A stretch of 19,502 nucleotides of DNA from a virus (lineage: Duplodnaviria; Heunggongvirae; Uroviricota; Caudoviricetes), in IMG/VR virus record IMGVR_UViG_2700989476_000014; one strand, given 5' to 3'. Made by a program: the position numbers and the translations under genes. The notes under the pieces are model-generated. The model was given only the letters and a program-made list of their open reading frames with translations. It did not search any database and had not been told where the DNA came from. This document shows positions 1-10,747 of this stretch, piece after piece. Each line of letters starts with the position of its first letter. Within the stretch, counting starts at the first letter, position 1.

Positions 1-438
1 ACAGCCGTACTGCCCTTTGCTCAGGTCTGCCTTCGGATGATTCAGCGTACTCATATCCTGCACATCATGCAGACAGTGGTCAGCCGGGATGATGTCGTTA
101 TACGTACAACTCTCTCCCCCCGGAGTTACCGTGCTGCGGCGCGCCAGCTGTTTAATGCGCGGATCCGGAGCATCGTAAGAATCCGGTAACGGAAGCCCTT
201 CACCGTAGGCCATGCCGTTGGACTGTCCGGCAAGCACAACCACGTAGAACCAGTCCGGCTCAGATGAAGGGCCGACCTGTGGATCTCCTTCAATAGCCAC
301 CGCCTGCATCAGTGTGTACGGCGTAATGGCAACCGGTCCGCCATATGGCTGCCAGCCCTCTTTCAGTTTGTGTGTCAGCTTTTCCGCAAGGTCTGACGGC
401 GACGCCGCCCTGACAACATCATAGTGTTTAAATGCCAT
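1..438 (-). CDS. 5' portion of a NanS-p-like prophage esterase (DUF1737-like N-terminus, then SGNH/SASA-type sialate O-acetylesterase motif); gene runs off the left window edge
   Basis: Absent from the ORF track because the window edge cuts it. Reading the minus strand from ATG 438-436 (SD GGGAGG a few nt upstream) gives MAFKHYDVVRAASPSDLAEKLTHKLKEGWQPYGG...VVVLAGQSNGMAYGEGLPLPD..., open to position 1. GQSNxM is typical of SASA/SGNH esterases; the position downstream of phage tRNAs matches nanS-p of Stx-type lambdoid phages. Family assignment is from memory. Confidence 0.55.
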   Translation of the reverse strand, partial: MAFKHYDVVRAASPSDLAEKLTHKLKEGWQPYGGPVAITPYTLMQAVAIEGDPQVGPSSEPDWFYVVVLAGQSNGMAYGEGLPLPDSYDAPDPRIKQLARRSTVTPGGESCTYNDIIPADHCLHDVQDMSTLNHPKADLSKGQYGC

Positions 439-631
439 GAATCCTCCCGGCCGGGATAATATTGTGAGTAAAATGAGGAGCGGGCTGAAGTCCGGAAGTT
501 ACAGGACAATGGCAGAAGAGAGACAACAGCCCGCAATACGAAAAAGGCCGCGCTATTGCGCAGAGTGATTACTGTCGGATATTATTCGCCAGCTGAAATA
601 TTACTTCACGTTTTGTTGTTTATTCCTTGCC

Positions 632-661
632 GCCCGCGTCTCCCAGCGCGGGCTTTTTTTT
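632..661 (+). terminator. Rho-independent terminator, plus-strand orientation
   Basis: GCCCGCG (632-638) / CGCGGGC (647-653) 7-bp GC stem with 8-nt loop, followed directly by T8 (654-661). Confidence 0.55.
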
Positions 662-665
662 GTCC

Positions 666-691
666 ATAAGAAAGCCCCTCCGGAGAGGGGC
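666..691 (-). terminator. Rho-independent terminator, minus-strand orientation (likely end of the tRNA transcription unit)
   Basis: GCCCCTC (674-680) / GAGGGGC (685-691) 7-bp stem with 4-nt loop; on the minus strand it is followed by TTTCTTAT. With 632-661 it forms a back-to-back terminator pair. Confidence 0.45.
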
Positions 692-928
692 TGGAGAGTG
701 GCGCTATGTGCCATTGCATGGTGCCGGGTGCCTCCCGGTGAATTCAGTACCAGCACCTGAATCCGCGATTATCCCATATAACTACTCGCTGATTGCCCCT
801 CCGCACAGGGGGATTCACCATGCCAGTTTCTTTTAACAAACTCCCCGCAAAACAGACAACTGTCAACCGTCTGAATTGTGAGACATTTAAAAAAAAGGCC
901 CGCAAAAGCGAGCCGGGAAAAATAAGTC

Positions 929-1005
929 TGGCGCGTTGTACTGGATTCGAACCAGTGACCGATTGCTTAGAAGGCAATTGCTCTGTCCGGCTGAGCTAAC
1001 AACGC
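929..1005 (-). tRNA. argO: tRNA-Arg (anticodon UCU, reads AGA/AGG)
   Basis: Minus-strand sequence GCGTTGTTAGCTCAGCCGGACAGAGCAATTGCCTTCTAAGCAATCGGTCACTGGTTCGAATCCAGTACAACGCGCCA: 7-bp acceptor stem, D-arm AGCTCAGCCGGACAGAGC, anticodon stem ATTGC/GCAAT with loop CTTCTAA (anticodon TCT), T-loop GGTTCGAATCC, 3' CCA encoded. Cloverleaf folded by hand, not by tRNAscan. Confidence 0.8.
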
Positions 1006-1018
1006 AGGGTACAGATAA

Positions 1019-1095
1019 TGGACCGCCATCGAGGACTCGAACCCCGCGCAACCAGCTTCGAAGGCTGGCGCTCTATCCCGATGAGCTAATGGCGG
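1019..1095 (-). tRNA. argN: tRNA-Arg (anticodon UCG)
   Basis: Minus-strand sequence CCGCCATTAGCTCATCGGGATAGAGCGCCAGCCTTCGAAGCTGGTTGCGCGGGGTTCGAGTCCTCGATGGCGGTCCA: anticodon stem CCAGC/GCTGG with loop CTTCGAA (anticodon TCG), T-loop GGTTCGAGTCC, 3' CCA encoded. Exact 5' end is +/- 1 nt. Confidence 0.75.
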
Positions 1096-1105
1096 TATGT
1101 GATAT

Positions 1106-1180
1106 GGTGGCCCTTGCTGGATTTGAACCAGCGACCTGGCGATTATGAGTCGCTCGCTCTCACCACTGAGCTAAAGTGCC
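1106..1180 (-). tRNA. ileZ: tRNA with CAU anticodon (Ile2-type/Met-like, as ileZ of lambdoid Stx phages)
   Basis: Minus-strand sequence GGCACTTTAGCTCAGTGGTGAGAGCGAGCGACTCATAATCGCCAGGTCGCTGGTTCAAATCCAGCAAGGGCCACCA: anticodon loop CTCATAA (anticodon CAT), T-loop GGTTCAAATCC, 3' CCA. One A:G mismatch in the acceptor stem. Ile versus Met identity cannot be decided from sequence alone. Confidence 0.7.
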
Positions 1181-1229
1181 GCGCGCAGAATAATAACGTT
1201 ACGGAATTAATACTGCAATCTCATCCGTT

Positions 1230-2279
1230 TCAAACGATTAAATCCTGAACTTCCCTGACTGTCTGCTCAAAACGTCCGGTCTCCAGCTCAACACCAATCG
1301 CACGACGCCCCAGTGCCATCGCCGCTTTTACCGTTGAACCCGACCCCATGAAAAAATCCGCAACCAGATCACCAGGACGACTACTTGCGCTGATTATCTG
1401 CTGCAGCATTTCTGCCGGTTTTTCGCACGGATGTTTCCCTGGATAGTACTGCACCGGTTTATACGTCCACACATCGGTGTACGGCACCTGCACCGTCACA
1501 CCGAAATACCGCCGCAAATTTTTATATTCACTCAGCAGTTCCATATACTTCCGGTTCAGCTCACTGTATGTGCTGACCAGCTGGTGGTGTGGCTTTTCCA
1601 GTTCCCCGCGCTGATGTTTCTCTTCTGCCACCCGGGCAAACAGCGACTGTAATTTCAGATAATCGCTTTCGTTCGGTAGCTGCCACTGACTGGCACTGAA
1701 CCAGTGCGGCACCATGTTTTTCTTTCCTGTGGCATCTGCAATCTGTTTTGCCGTTATCCCCAGGGCAGCGCGCGCATCACGAAAGTAAGCAATCAGCGGG
1801 GCCATCACATGCTGTTTCAGTGCCCTGCCCTTCGCCTCATACCCGGCATCTTTCGGGCGATACGGCCCCTGATAATGTTCCGCGAACAGAATGCGCTCTG
1901 TGGCGGGGAAATACGCCCGCAGGCTTTCCTTGTTGCACCCGTTCCAGCGTCCGGACGGCTTTGCCCAGATAATATGGTTCAGCACACTGAAGCGTTCACG
2001 CATCATGATTTCAATGTCAGATGCCAGGCGATGGCCACAGAACAGGTAAAGACTTCCGGCAGGTTTCAGCACCCGCCAGAACTGCGCCAGACACTGGTCC
2101 AGCCACTTCAGGTAATCATCGTCGCCCTTCCACTGGTTATCCCAGCCCTCGGGCTTCACTTTAAAGTACGGCGGGTCCGTGACTATCAGGTCAACAGAAT
2201 TTTCGGGTAACGACCGGATAAATTCCAGGCAGTCGGCGTTGATTAACTCACAACTGGATATTTTTACAGTATTAAGCAT
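1230..2279 (-). CDS. DNA methyltransferase (N6-adenine/N4-cytosine class, DPPY motif; no cognate restriction enzyme seen)
   Basis: 349-aa ORF; N-terminal ...ELINADCLEFIRSLPENSVDLIVTDPPYF... (catalytic DPPY) and C-terminal ...DFFMGSGSTVKAAMALGRRAIGVE... (AdoMet-binding FxGxG) match the layout of DNA modification methylases. Confidence 0.85.
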   Translation of the reverse strand: MLNTVKISSCELINADCLEFIRSLPENSVDLIVTDPPYFKVKPEGWDNQWKGDDDYLKWLDQCLAQFWRVLKPAGSLYLFCGHRLASDIEIMMRERFSVLNHIIWAKPSGRWNGCNKESLRAYFPATERILFAEHYQGPYRPKDAGYEAKGRALKQHVMAPLIAYFRDARAALGITAKQIADATGKKNMVPHWFSASQWQLPNESDYLKLQSLFARVAEEKHQRGELEKPHHQLVSTYSELNRKYMELLSEYKNLRRYFGVTVQVPYTDVWTYKPVQYYPGKHPCEKPAEMLQQIISASSRPGDLVADFFMGSGSTVKAAMALGRRAIGVELETGRFEQTVREVQDLIV

Positions 2280-2311
2280 GGATCATTAAGCCTGTCTCTG
2301 ATAGGCTCATT

Positions 2312-2330
2312 CTGCTTTTGCGCAAAGCAG
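2312..2330. promoter_or_regulatory. Near-palindromic hairpin/binding-site candidate in the methylase leader
   Basis: CTGCTTTTGCGCAAAGCAG: 7-bp arms CTGCTTT/AAAGCAG around TGCGC; contains TTGCGCAA, the same palindromic core seen in the OR region (11603-11610). Confidence 0.25.
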
Positions 2331-2430
2331 ATGGGCCTGAGGTTTGCTTGTGACCCCAACGCATGAGCAGATGGCTGGCAGGTGCCGCTAACACCCACCA
2401 GCCGCCCATTTTCACAGCAGGAAACCGCCA

Positions 2431-2634
2431 TTACTGGCAGCGTCTGAATTTATTCCCGTACCCGCCGTTATCCTTCGCCAGACCCGCCAGAACTAACTGA
2501 GTCAGTATTAACTGGCACCGGGCTTCGCTTACTCCGGTAGTTCTCGTCATCATGCGTGGCGTTACCCACTTGTCAGCAGGTAAGAAATGAAGGACTGCGG
2601 CGGCGGTTTCTGTCATATCTTGCTGTTTTAGCAT
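2431..2634 (-). CDS. Hypothetical small protein (67 aa), first ORF after the putative late terminator
   Basis: Track ORF 2431..2742 (103 aa); I prefer the internal ATG at 2634-2632 (MLKQQDMTETAAAV...) because it has an SD-like AAGGGA ~7 nt upstream and the upstream 36 codons look non-protein-like. No family recognised. Confidence 0.4.
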   Translation of the reverse strand: MLKQQDMTETAAAVLHFLPADKWVTPRMMTRTTGVSEARCQLILTQLVLAGLAKDNGGYGNKFRRCQ

Positions 2635-2754
2635 GTCTTTTCCCTTCTGGTTAACATGACATACCAATAACTCTTGTCTAAAAAGCCAGCAAGATAAAAA
2701 GCCAGTATTCACGACCACCAGCGTGTTTACTGTACTGCACAAGGTTTACAGGTA

Positions 2755-2780
2755 CAAAAAAACCGCTCAGCGGCGGGTTT
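2755..2780 (-). terminator. Terminator-like hairpin with T7 tail on the minus strand (candidate tR'-like late terminator); weak in the plus orientation
   Basis: Minus strand reads ...CCGCCGCTGAGCGG TTTTTTT: short GC stem (CCGC/GCGG) followed by seven T; on the plus strand the same hairpin is preceded by A7. Confidence 0.4.
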
Positions 2781-2782
2781 AA

Positions 2783-2898
2783 GTTGTGTGGCGAAGTAAC
2801 CACTCTTAACACGATATAATACTTTTTGCGTACGCGTTAGGATTTTTATAAACTATGCGTCCCCATTCTCGCTATCTTTAGTCGGTCCTGGAATACAC
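2783..2898 (+). promoter_or_regulatory. Candidate promoter region for the AT-rich cassette (and, on the opposite strand, possible location of the late promoter/qut)
   Basis: Perfect -10 hexamer TATAAT at 2814-2819 with a weak -35 candidate upstream; a second TATAAA at 2846-2851; AT-rich tract right upstream of ATG 2899. The -35 elements are poor, so the assignment is tentative. Confidence 0.35.
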
Positions 2899-3825
2899 AT
2901 GAAAGTTAGAAGCATAGGATTTACAATAAATAACAATAACAAAAATATTAATACCGTTGACGTAATGAATGCTTTTATCAACGCATCAAACAGAGAACAC
3001 AGTCGCACAGACTATACTCGTAAAATTCTCATTTCGGATGTGAATGATTTCTATTATGGATTAGTTGTCACATTCAGAAACCAAAAAAAGAACTGTAAGT
3101 CGCAATTTGTTGATGGTAAATTCCAGCTTAAAATTGAAGATCTTCAAGGAAGTGACAAACTTGCTAATTTCAACTTTTTCTTAATTAAAAAATCTAATCT
3201 TTCTGGTCTCTATATGTATCACCACGGTTCATGCAGTCTGAACACTCTCTTTTCTCATTTAGAAACAATAAGTAATGAATTTATCAGAAATCAAAATAAA
3301 GAAGAAATAAAAAAACTTGGTGATAAACCAAAACAAAAAGAAGTAACTGCAATAAATAAAAAATACAAAGAAAGACTGACTTTCAGCCTTATGACAAATA
3401 AAAACAACATTCAGAGTGTTTTATGTCAATTCAAAGAGATTAAAAGCACAAGCTTTAAATTTAATTATATAGATTTTAAAGGTGGACCAATGACTGCGCT
3501 TGAACAATTTGTTAACACCACCACAATAGATATGAATTTTAATTCTAGCGACAGAACAAAAGTGCAACAACTATCTCAGAATCTTTCAAATATTTATAAT
3601 TCTATGAGTGGAGTTGCTAAAGCACAGGTTATTGCAGTAAACCATGCAGGAATAGAAAAAACCATTGATTTTATGAACTGCCCTGTTTTTTTTGAAACAT
3701 ACGATTTCGATATAATTGCCGATAAAGTCAATGGATTGACAAACGATAATTATACAACAAACCCTGTTTTTGATATGATAAAAGAAGAAATGCTGAACGG
3801 GACGAATAAAAATGCCTTTATATGA
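2899..3825 (+). CDS. Hypothetical protein, component A of an AT-rich two-gene cassette (308 aa, Asn/Lys-rich, no catalytic motif recognised)
   Basis: 308-aa ORF on the strand opposite to all neighbouring phage genes; strongly AT-rich codon usage; overlaps the start of the next ORF by 14 nt. No Walker A, HEPN, HNH, TIR or PD-(D/E)XK signature recognised by eye. Confidence 0.75.
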   Translation: MKVRSIGFTINNNNKNINTVDVMNAFINASNREHSRTDYTRKILISDVNDFYYGLVVTFRNQKKNCKSQFVDGKFQLKIEDLQGSDKLANFNFFLIKKSNLSGLYMYHHGSCSLNTLFSHLETISNEFIRNQNKEEIKKLGDKPKQKEVTAINKKYKERLTFSLMTNKNNIQSVLCQFKEIKSTSFKFNYIDFKGGPMTALEQFVNTTTIDMNFNSSDRTKVQQLSQNLSNIYNSMSGVAKAQVIAVNHAGIEKTIDFMNCPVFFETYDFDIIADKVNGLTNDNYTTNPVFDMIKEEMLNGTNKNAFI

Positions 3826-4360
3826 ATGGCTAATAAATAAAAGATTGAGGTATCAGTACCTTACACTGCTTGCATTCTCGATCCTGGCATTGCTTGCACT
3901 TTACCTATTGTACAGAAACACACCTAAAGTAAGTGTTAACTTTTTTGATTTTTATCATAAAAACTTACGAGGCTATCTCTTCTCCGGTTTTATTTCCGTG
4001 GGCTCATTTTTATTGAGCCTGCATACCTTTGTTATAATAAATTTACGCGATAAGGTTTTTGCAACTCAGGAATATAAGGAAATTTATAGCATTGCCACTG
4101 GTATACCTATTGACAAAATCAATGATAGTGTACTTTATAAACCTTTAGACAATTTATCCTCATTTATTAATACATCAATATTATGTTCTATCACAACAGC
4201 AATTGCACAATTCACTATTGGACTTTCAACTAATTTATATGCATGCTTATTTTGCGTATGGCTTGCAATACTAACGGTATTTCTTTTATTACATTGCCTC
4301 ATCATAATCAGACAAAATATTAAAATTTTATTAAAGCAACAGAGAAAAAAAGGGGGGTAA
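3812..4360 (+). CDS. Small multi-pass membrane protein, component B of the cassette (182 aa, 3-4 predicted TM helices, basic C-terminal tail)
   Basis: Hydrophobic stretches YLTLLAFSILALLALYLLY, GYLFSGFISVGSFLLSLHTFVIINL, FINTSILCSITTAIAQFTIGL and LYACLFCVWLAILTVFLLLHCLIII; C-terminus ...RQNIKILLKQQRKKGG. The start ATG overlaps the end of component A (ATGCCTTTATATGA). Confidence 0.75.
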   Translation: MPLYEWLINKRLRYQYLTLLAFSILALLALYLLYRNTPKVSVNFFDFYHKNLRGYLFSGFISVGSFLLSLHTFVIINLRDKVFATQEYKEIYSIATGIPIDKINDSVLYKPLDNLSSFINTSILCSITTAIAQFTIGLSTNLYACLFCVWLAILTVFLLLHCLIIIRQNIKILLKQQRKKGG

Positions 4361-4372: not shown

Positions 4373-4729
4373 TTACAACATTGAAAGCACACCATCCAGA
4401 AAACCAAGAGCTGTTTGCAACTCTTTTCTTATTGTCCCATCAGAACACTTCTGCTTCTTTGCAATAGTTCTTAGTGAGATGCCGATAACAAAATGAGCAA
4501 TAACCAACTCATACTCTTCGGGCTTATATTTCCGCAATCGCGCAACACAGCTGTCAATCATGATTCCTTCATCATCATCGCATTGTTGGCGTGTTTTCTT
4601 TCCATGAGGTAGTAAACCTTTAAACCCTGCAGCAACAGGCTGCCAGTCCACACCACTGTTATCTGCTGCAGCCCATGCACCCCAGCGGTCCAATACTTCA
4701 TACATATCACGCATCAACTTTCTCCACAA
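4373..4729 (-). CDS. Late-gene antitermination protein Q (small phage 21/82-type Q family)
   Basis: 118 aa: ...VLDRWGAWAAADNSGVDWQPVAAGFKGLLP...QCDDDEGIMIDSCVARLRK...HFVIGISLRTIAKKQKCSDGTIRKELQTALGFLDGVLSML, the pattern I recognise for short Q antiterminators. Position (last gene of the early-right operon, ahead of the tRNA/late region) is as expected. Confidence 0.8.
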   Translation of the reverse strand: MWRKLMRDMYEVLDRWGAWAAADNSGVDWQPVAAGFKGLLPHGKKTRQQCDDDEGIMIDSCVARLRKYKPEEYELVIAHFVIGISLRTIAKKQKCSDGTIRKELQTALGFLDGVLSML

Positions 4730-9384: not shown

Positions 9385-9605
9385 GCTGCACCTCCGAGAT
9401 GCTTCATGTTTTTTCCGGAGCAAAAGGCTATAAGCGGCATACTGATGCGGTAATTACGGCCCAGCGGTTCACAAATCACCTTCTGACATTCACGGTCAAC
9501 CAGGCTAACACGTAGAACATGCCCTGCAGGCGTGGTGTACCACTGACCCGGACGAGGACAACGGAAAGTATGATTGGTAAACCGTTTGAAAATATTCCGG
9601 ATCAT
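9381..9605 (-). CDS. Hypothetical small protein (74 aa)
   Basis: ORF with ATGA overlaps to both the upstream Rha gene and the downstream O-like gene, which suggests it is translated. No family recognised. Confidence 0.4.
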   Translation of the reverse strand: MIRNIFKRFTNHTFRCPRPGQWYTTPAGHVLRVSLVDRECQKVICEPLGRNYRISMPLIAFCSGKNMKHLGGAA

Positions 9606-10147
9606 TTGCGCCCCCTTACCTCTGAAGGGTTCAGCGACAAATTTATGAGACTGGCCAGTAGCGCCGCGTCGTTGATGCGGTCATACAGACTTACAGCCAG
9701 CGGGGATTCGGCTTTTGCCAACATGGGATAAAGCTGCTGCAGCCAGACCTGATGAATTGATGAAATGTAGGAATAGAGAACGCTGGCGTTATGTGCAACG
9801 TCGCTCAGTACAGAGGGATTTGAAAGCTGTTTCTCCATCTGGTTAAAGGCATTGATGTATGCCTCTTTGAACCGGGCAGCACGTTTCCCCGTGAAGCCCA
9901 TGGCAAGAAACGCAAAACCGTCGCGGGTGATTTGGTAACAAGGGAGTTTGCGGCCTGTGCAATCGGTGTAATCACTGGGCTGAAAATTCAGCTCAGTGAA
10001 TTCAACAGAGCACTCAAGCGTCTGGATTTTTTGAATAACGTTTTTGTGCTGCTTGCAGAAATATTCGGCAACGGCCAAAGAAGAGGTAACAGCCTTCCCA
10101 TGGATAACATCAATTTTAGGGTGAGTTTGGGTAGGGGTGGTTGCCAT
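9602..10147 (-). CDS. Phage regulatory protein Rha (antirepressor-type)
   Basis: From the internal ATG at 10147-10145 (SD GAGGA 7 nt upstream): MATTPTQTHPKIDVIHGKAVTSSLAVAEYFCKQHKNVIQKIQTLE...YQITRDGFAFLAMGFTGKRAARFKEAYINAFNQMEKQL..., a typical Rha-domain sequence. The track ORF extends in frame to 10747 (381 aa). Confidence 0.75.
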   Translation of the reverse strand: MATTPTQTHPKIDVIHGKAVTSSLAVAEYFCKQHKNVIQKIQTLECSVEFTELNFQPSDYTDCTGRKLPCYQITRDGFAFLAMGFTGKRAARFKEAYINAFNQMEKQLSNPSVLSDVAHNASVLYSYISSIHQVWLQQLYPMLAKAESPLAVSLYDRINDAALLASLINLSLNPSEVRGRK

Positions 10148-10747
10148 AGTGACATCCTCATGTGCGAATTTTGAAAACTCACCACATGGGACGCCAATCA
10201 CAGAGGTGGTGAGACGTACAGGGTTGGCGTAACCGGTCGCACATGACCCCGGCGCATCTTTCGATGCCCCTGCACGCCCCACCATAATTTGGATGTGAGG
10301 AAACGTGCGCAAAAAAACCGCTGAAGCGCGGTTATGCGCATGTGCGAATTTCAGGACGCCAATCCCGGCACCCGCTTTATAAGGTGCCTGAACAGTGTAA
10401 CGTCCCGGAATTGCAGAATCAATATGCTGGTGGTCCTTCACACTCAACAAAATCACGCCTGAATTTCCACAAAGGACTAAAGCACTCATGCGGGTAGTCT
10501 TTGCGAAGATAGATAACGCGCTGTGTTTCTGGCTCCCAACGAATAACATGGACATAAAGCCCTCTTCCGTCACGAAACCAGCGGTTAAGTTCCTGCACAA
10601 CTCGCCCCCCACAGTCAGGTAAAGTTCTCTGTGGTTACTTACAGCCAGGTGATTTGGTAATCTGCATTCATGCCGTAACAACAGGTGTTCAGCGACGCTG
10701 ACCACCAGCTGTTGCGACAAACGGTTATTTGCCGTTAAACTATTCAT
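10148..10747 (-). other. In-frame 200-codon extension upstream of rha: either a fused N-terminal domain or a gene remnant; contains a terminator-like hairpin and a duplicated segment
   Basis: No stop codon over 200 codons; ATG 10747 overlaps the stop of the upstream gene (ATGA). It also contains a hairpin + T7 (minus-strand reading, ~10306-10330) and two copies of GATTGGCGTC...AAATTCGCACATG (10339-10364 and 10159-10199). The GNSG/DHQH/AHAH spacing is reminiscent of a degenerate metallophosphoesterase (weak). Confidence 0.3.

Follow-up and report, generated by a model that had tools for sequence, protein, structure and literature searches.

The stx-less toxin site of an Escherichia coli O104:H4 lambdoid prophage and a predicted convergent pair of small RNA genes beside it

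Lambdoid phages that convert their hosts to Shiga toxin (Stx) production carry stxA and stxB in a late region whose neighboring genes are readily recognized; what, then, lies at the toxin site of a relative that has the neighbors and lacks the toxin? This question is raised by a 19,502-nucleotide (nt) stretch of Caudoviricetes DNA (IMG/VR record IMGVR_UViG_2700989476_000014; hereafter the window, by which we mean the whole stretch), in which transfer RNA (tRNA) genes of the ileZ-argN-argO type are followed on the minus strand by the start of a nanS-p-like esterase gene. A reading of the DNA letters by themselves (the sequence-only reading) described the roughly 490 base pairs (bp) between argO and the esterase as non-coding DNA that carries back-to-back terminators and represents an empty toxin slot. 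We find that the observation is confirmed and that its interpretation is partly right: the locus corresponds, without stx, to the late regions of Stx phages and sits at a site of variable cargo, yet the interval is neither the slot nor empty. Instead, the site at which Stx2 phages carry their toxin genes is a 2-bp point at one end of the interval, and the interval itself is predicted to encode two convergent small RNAs (sRNAs), one of the STnc100 type and one of the EcOnc08/21/42 type.

The insertion point of the toxin cassette

Alignment with the toxin flanks of Stx phages locates the site. Window positions 341-885 and 888-1298 are collinear with four Stx2 phages, namely LC645409 (O145 Stx2a), LC567830 (Stx2d), Sakai Sp5 and P13374 (Stx2a, from the O104:H4 outbreak strain); the BLAST breakpoints fall at 885|888 in all four, with exactly 1,332 bp between the flanks in each, and a pairwise alignment to LC567830 is collinear except for one large block found only in the phage. 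In Sp5, the 1,332-bp block extends from 50 bp upstream of stx2A to 41 bp beyond the stx2B stop codon. Since all four phages place 1,332 bp between 885 and 888, the cargo insertion point, or moron slot (885-888, without strand), reduces to bases 886-887, beside the argO terminator. This terminator (GGCTCGCTTTTGCGGGCC; minus strand, 889-914) has a stem at 914-897 followed by T8 in the terminator scan and is conserved in the Stx2d phage and in phage Nil3. The notion that the ~490-bp interval is itself the vacant slot is thus not sustained, as 447 of its 490 bp (439-885) are kept in Stx phages between stxB and nanS-p. The more general proposal of an stx-less relative of the Stx-phage late region is borne out by the same collinearity, which is complete save for the stx2AB cassette, and the toxin genes are indeed missing: tblastn with the A and B subunits of Stx1 and Stx2 against the whole window gave a best E-value of 0.7 and no stx remnant. 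Three other features of Stx-converting late regions are present, namely Q upstream of the late operon, ileZ-argN-argO upstream of the toxin site, and nanS-p followed by holin and lysis genes; only stxA and stxB are missing.

Exact collinearity with the same breakpoints in four Stx2 phages is also what a former Stx2 phage would show after a precise deletion of stx2AB, in which case the locus would be a decayed toxin site rather than one never occupied, and Stx2 phages that share the window's methylase-tRNA backbone do exist, at 91-92% identity. We nevertheless consider such a deletion improbable. The window contains no stx remnants, no transposon- or integron-like repeats that could mediate excision were found at the cassette boundaries, and on the sRNA side the flanks of the window and of the resident Stx2a phage share only 73-74% identity. 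Moreover, the stx-less junction is common: it occurs in 941 of 5,426 complete E. coli genomes, including O157:H7 (prophage Sp4), O55:H7, uropathogenic (UPEC) and avian pathogenic (APEC) strains, and likewise in phage Nil3. The abundance of the junction, together with the missing remnants and boundary repeats, favors a site that was never occupied, or was exchanged by recombination, over a private deletion.

The sequence-only reading had alternatively called the locus a cargo-exchange site. That different cargo resides here in other genomes is established, since the slot variously holds stx2, a 642-bp DUF3927 insert, a 38-bp spacer (Sp9) or a duplicated sRNA module, but exchange by recombination is drawn from the mosaic pattern. 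Two of these loci deserve description. In the human isolate NZ_CP095137, a 642-bp insert (2728-3369) with a 43-amino-acid (aa) DUF3927 open reading frame (ORF) replaces the argO terminator region (window 894-915), and iraM stands downstream in place of nanS-p, which makes this a different cargo set at the same site. In the APEC strain E18006 (NZ_CP126942), tandem STnc100 modules (2120-2801 and 3058-3684) follow the tRNAs, one of them 96% and the other 81% identical to the window, suggesting that the sRNA module itself recombines or duplicates.

Two predicted small RNAs between the slot and nanS-p

If the slot is a point, what fills the interval? It contains no credible protein gene, and to that extent its description as non-coding stands, but RNA genes lie inside it, among them an STnc100 match at 662-852 on the minus strand. 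The back-to-back terminators are also real, comprising a plus-strand stem at 632-653 with a T8 tract ending at 661 and a minus-strand stem at 692-673, and we interpret them as the 3' ends of two convergent sRNAs, of EcOnc08/21/42 type on the plus strand and STnc100 type on the minus strand. Convergent Hfq-binding sRNA pairs of this kind, termed dyads, have been described 3' of stx2B in Sp5 and, in no fewer than eight prophages of Sakai, at the moron site 3' of PR' and before the lysis genes (PMC4104026, PMC7873438).

The closest known system is the Sakai prophage Sp4 of E. coli O157:H7 (ileZ1-argN1-argO1, EcOnc05, EcOnc08/21, ECs1088), which is 97.3% identical over window positions 1-1196 and shares the stx-less junction, both sRNAs and an esterase, ECs1088, in the nanS-p position. 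Its RNAs have been mapped by crosslinking and analysis of cDNA (CRAC) with Hfq and by Northern blot. Sp4 differs in its host, O157:H7 rather than O104:H4, and in its upstream backbone, in which genes for an AraC-family regulator and a CAAX protease take the place of the window's methylase.

The sRNA on the late-gene strand is assigned to the STnc100 family by Rfam RF02076, which matches positions 852-662 over the full model (1-206) with 140 bits against a gathering score of 47 (E=2.5e-31). The terminator scan places an eight-pair stem at 692-673, and the gene as a whole probably spans 662-885 (minus strand), its 5' limit near 885 being deduced from published Northern sizes of ~222-247 nt. Its homologues are EcOnc05 in Sp4, EcOnc27/sRNA103 in Sp5 and PasD in enteropathogenic E. 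coli, and the family is found directly after stx2B in Sp5 (208 bits) and after stx1B in Sp15 (177 bits). In Sakai, EcOnc27 of Sp5 measures ~235/247 nt (sRNA103 in EDL933) and EcOnc05 of Sp4 ~222 nt (PMC7873438), and in EDL933 transcription is reported for eleven copies of STnc100 (PMC5331693). On the expected strand, window positions 760-794 match the EcOnc05 Northern probe with one mismatch. An expressed, Hfq-associated RNA of ~220-250 nt is published for the Sp4, Sp5 and EDL933 copies, and by analogy the window copy would yield the same. The fold itself is conserved: in a consensus of 10 phage copies, 7 of 33 pairs show compensatory changes (columns 156:178 are AU in five copies and GC in five), and the minimum free energy of the window RNA has a z-score of -2.89.

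Covariation of this sort bears on a different reading of the interval, in which it encodes small proteins. ORFs of 51-77 aa with TTG or GTG starts are present, and databases annotate such proteins: RefSeq lists an incomplete pseudogene for a 'hypothetical protein' (708-833, plus strand) that lies antisense within the STnc100 RNA, and P13374 is annotated with ORF45 and ORF46 over the homologous sRNA pair. We give this reading almost no weight. The ORFs overlap a structured RNA with covariation, RefSeq flags its own coding sequence as an incomplete pseudogene, and aligned homologues differ by indels that are not multiples of three; both sets of annotations are probably spurious protein calls over RNA genes.

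The STnc100-type RNA also shares short sequences with the toxin gene. Two short exact words within stx2B, TCAGTTGACAG and TGTCACAAT, are found again, with their order exchanged, within the conserved 5' block of the RNA, just past the cassette end (Sakai Sp5 segment 2761-2787 versus 2892-2915; window equivalent ~860-883), and the same 11-mer has been reported as an STnc100/stxB match (PMC12370729). The shared words could reflect chance, recombination microhomology or a pairing site.

The RNA on the opposite strand, antisense to late transcription, is identified by homology as an EcOnc08/21/42-type Hfq-binding sRNA with a supported minimum extent of 495-661 (plus strand). The published EcOnc08/21/42 Northern probe is the exact reverse complement of window positions 552-586 (35 of 35 positions, no mismatches). 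For Sp4, Tree et al. (2014) reported the Hfq-crosslinking peaks EcOnc08 and EcOnc21 on the strand opposite EcOnc05, together with a Northern band of ~271 nt; the two CRAC peaks, Sakai positions 1179938-1180010 and 1180016-1180101, correspond to window 586-658 and 495-580, a mapping that assumes zero coordinate shift between versions of the Sakai genome and is supported by the position of the EcOnc05 probe. EcOnc42, the homologue of EcOnc08/EcOnc21 found 3' of stx1 in Sp15 (PMC7547250), is flagged with a Rho-independent terminator (Tree et al., Table S2). In the window, the terminator scan gives this RNA an intrinsic terminator with a stem at 632-653 (eight pairs, seven of them G-C) and T8 at 654-661, and this hairpin dominates the fold (z = -3.49; none of 200 shuffles folds as well). 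The probe match, the identity to Sp4 and the mapped peaks together make the plus-strand terminator the likely 3' end of an EcOnc08/21/42-type RNA, so that the earlier advice to seek a small RNA upstream of this terminator was sound. The 5' end has two candidates: if the RNA is ~271 nt long and ends at 661, its start would fall near 391, so that it would be antisense to the first codons and the ribosome-binding site of nanS-p, while a promoter-like site at 432-460 would give ~195 nt instead.

One could instead regard the hairpins as a mere bidirectional transcription insulator between the tRNA unit and nanS-p, with no functional RNA gene on the plus strand. The plus-strand RNA indeed lacks a strong promoter consensus, and no Rfam family matches the plus strand. 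Against this stand the Hfq-CRAC peaks and the ~271-nt Northern band for the 97%-identical Sp4/Sp15 RNA, whose probe matches the window without a mismatch, and the wide conservation of the segment, which is kept at 95% identity or more in 992 complete genomes and is also present in 58 phage records that include Stx1, Stx2a and Stx2d phages. We therefore regard an insulator alone as very improbable. By alignment, the plus-strand sequence type of the window is shared with Nil3, O157 MB41-1, an APEC strain, the O145 Stx2a and Stx2d phages and Sp15, and the RNA region is 87% identical to that of Sp15.

The plus-strand RNA invites comparison with the sponge RNAs AsxR, AgvB and EcOnc03, which it resembles in position, in orientation, in converging with an STnc100-type RNA and in ending at an intrinsic terminator; the upstream sequence is common to both up to TTGCGCAG. 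The sponges differ in having a conserved ~42-nt 3' region that is missing from the window, and in measuring 51-60 nt against ~271 nt for the RNA homologous to that of the window. Neither RF02703 nor RF02702 matches at E<=10, and blastn-short with AgvB, AsxR and EcOnc03 matched three other loci, including Sakai Sp5, and missed the window. Judged by sequence, then, the RNA is not a member of the AsxR/AgvB/EcOnc03 family. Alignment with the AsxR promoter had also suggested a short plus-strand sRNA of 52-70 nt with its own promoter (TTGCGC at 556-561 with TATTAT at 580-585, or TG-n-AATATT at 594-602); this is unsupported because the probe that detects the published ~271-nt RNA (552-586) lies upstream of the putative starts. 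A GU-rich segment at 611-622 shares a 7-mer with GcvB, and was considered as a GcvB-seed mimic or as a site for pairing with AgvB, but its duplex energies are no better than those of shuffled sequences (fractions 0.26 and 0.49). A full-text literature search for the terminator and seed strings returned no paper containing them. As a tentative and rather doubtful proposal, the plus-strand RNA might stand in for the AsxR/AgvB sponges as a functional alternative allele of this phage site: if ~271 nt long, it could act in cis as an antisense brake on nanS-p and on late-operon read-through in the lysogen, and in trans as an Hfq-dependent regulator or sponge of host targets.

Just upstream of the nanS-p leader the late strand carries a further conserved hairpin, CUGCGC-AAUA-GCGCGG followed by CCUUUUUCG (548-563, minus strand), which resembles a terminator and is complementary to part of the plus-strand RNA. 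It is present in nine of ten aligned loci and absent only from the truncated Sp12 segment. With a folding z-score of only -1.06, it is a putative terminator. In the first 3 kilobases (kb) of the window, terminator-like sites number 9, compared with 3.8 +/- 1.8 in shuffled sequences.

Proposed working of the region and its relatives

We think it very likely that the window belongs to an stx-negative lambdoid prophage of E. coli O104:H4 in which Q and PR', a methylase, the tRNAs, the cargo point, the sRNA pair and nanS-p follow one another and work together as outlined here. Downstream of Q and PR', the order is DNA methylase, ileZ-argN-argO with its own terminator, the 2-bp cargo point, the convergent sRNA pair, nanS-p and the lysis genes. 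In such phages, the tRNAs have their own promoter, and PR' transcripts end early unless Q acts (PMC7547250). We propose that in the lysogen, the tRNAs and both sRNAs would be made constitutively from their own promoters, and that both sRNAs would act through Hfq on host or phage mRNAs. Upon induction, Q-modified polymerase from PR' would read on through the terminators that follow argO and the STnc100-type RNA and through the hairpin at 563-548, allowing expression of nanS-p and the lysis genes. Cargo at 885-888, such as stx2AB in related phages, would ride on the late transcript and thereby come under late-promoter control. Finally, the conserved flanks, with the tRNAs on one side and the sRNA pair and nanS-p on the other, could allow homologous recombination between co-resident prophages to move cargo in or out.

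Several points weigh against this account. The terminator and promoter scan found a strong sigma-70 consensus for neither sRNA. Transcription, Hfq binding and RNA ends of the O104:H4 copy are transferred from the 97%-identical Sakai locus, and both read-through by Q and cargo exchange by recombination are drawn from general lambdoid biology and the mosaic pattern. In addition, targets of the STnc100-type and EcOnc08/21/42-type RNAs are at most tentatively reported (PMC7873438).

Comparison with other phages shows how the parts vary. The Stx2a phages 933W, Sp5 and P13374 (Q, tRNAs, stx2AB, EcOnc27 with AsxR, nanS-p) share the gene order, the cassette breakpoints, a 92%-identical tRNA flank and an STnc100-family RNA immediately after the slot, but carry the 1,332-bp stx2AB cassette, have the 53-nt sponge AsxR as the antisense partner and are only 73-74% identical in the sRNA-side flank. 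LC567830 (Stx2d_112808), LC645409 and the Stx1 prophage Sp15 carry an EcOnc08/21/42-type segment at 95-97% identity and an STnc100-family RNA downstream of the toxin; unlike the window, all three bear toxin genes, and in Sp15 the tRNA cluster is missing and the junction on the toxin side differs. Nil3 (AM051322, from bovine O157:H7) is stx-less like the window, with the tRNAs directly followed by the interval (98.2% identity over 485-927) and the same junction, but its Q region differs, carrying an annotated tR' and lacking the methylase; its deposited sequence is partial.

With both of its RNAs, the arrangement is thus known from earlier publication of a locus that is 97% identical; it is real, ordinary and widespread. 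Its interest is partly one of annotation, since RefSeq leaves both sRNAs unannotated in the O104:H4 outbreak genome and lays a pseudogene coding sequence over one of them. Modules that run from the tRNAs to nanS-p without stx are the common state of this phage region, and not evidence of toxin loss. The outbreak strain holds both an occupied (P13374) and an empty version of the same slot, with flanks whose identity is 92% next to the tRNAs and 73% next to the sRNAs. Co-resident homologous flanks of this kind are a substrate for movement of stx between prophage backbones, a well-established idea that is not new here.

Flanking genes and the remainder of the prophage

Window positions 1-2800 are 100% identical to chromosomes of O104:H4 outbreak isolates, among them 2011C-3493, C227-11 and HUSEC2011. 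Across the whole window, RefSeq places a tyrosine integrase at the far end, then early genes, a Q-family antiterminator, a DNA methyltransferase and three tRNAs, and lastly the first part of a SASA-family esterase. Because of this order, we identify the window as the left half (early and late-regulatory regions) of a lambdoid, stx-negative prophage of E. coli O104:H4 whose late genes lie on the minus strand.

ARAGORN, Rfam (56-70 bits) and RefSeq agree on three minus-strand tRNA genes within 929-1180, in accord with the sequence-only reading: a tRNA-Arg (TCT) of argO type at 929-1005, a tRNA-Arg (TCG) of argN type at 1019-1095, and a tRNA with a CAT anticodon of ileZ type at 1105-1180, the last called Met by ARAGORN and tRNA-Ile by RefSeq. 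The homologous Sakai genes bear the names ileZ, argN and argO, and the cluster shares 92% identity with the tRNA region of Sp5.

The esterase start predicted at 438 is likewise upheld. The ORF (1-438, minus strand, 146 codons; ATG at 438-436, GGAGG Shine-Dalgarno sequence at 444-448) is the 5' end of WP_000874354.1, a RefSeq 'SASA family carbohydrate esterase' of 617 aa, of which codons 1-146 lie inside the window. Pfam finds DUF1737, SASA and DUF6645 on the full-length protein, matching the NanS-p architecture described for Stx-phage esterases (PMC10462455), and by this domain architecture we class it as a NanS-p-type sialate O-acetylesterase. In the genome record, a class II holin follows the esterase, beyond the window.

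On the other side of the tRNAs, Pfam identifies an N6/N4 DNA methylase at 1230-2279 (minus strand), between Q/PR' and the tRNA cluster, and a Q antiterminator at 4373-4714 (minus strand; Phage_antitermQ, 154 bits). A 67-bp segment at 2751-2817 (minus strand) is 82-84% identical to the PR'/qut region directly downstream of Q in Sp5, Sp15, Nil3 and P13374, and a terminator with a GC hairpin and T7 (2774-2762, minus strand) lies within or just after it, which hints that the PR' transcript terminates after a very short distance and occupies the position of StxS or lambda 6S RNA. In related phages such as LC567830, Q directly adjoins the PR'-like region; here, two overlapping ORFs on the opposite strand are inserted between them, one of 308 aa at 2899-3825 (plus strand; phrog_2802, unknown function) and one of 182 aa at 3812-4360 (plus strand). 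Neither has a Pfam or PADLOC match and the 182-aa ORF has no PHROG match; the pair may be a moron or a defense pair.

Further into the early region, Rfam reports two adjacent matches above gathering score on the minus strand, a C4 antisense RNA at 10202-10289 (75 bits) and isrK at 10311-10387 (62 bits), both within the span that is annotated as a gene for a Rha-family regulator (9602-10747, minus strand). The putative C4 and isrK arrangement resembles a C4-controlled antirepressor module of the P1/P7 type in a lambdoid prophage.

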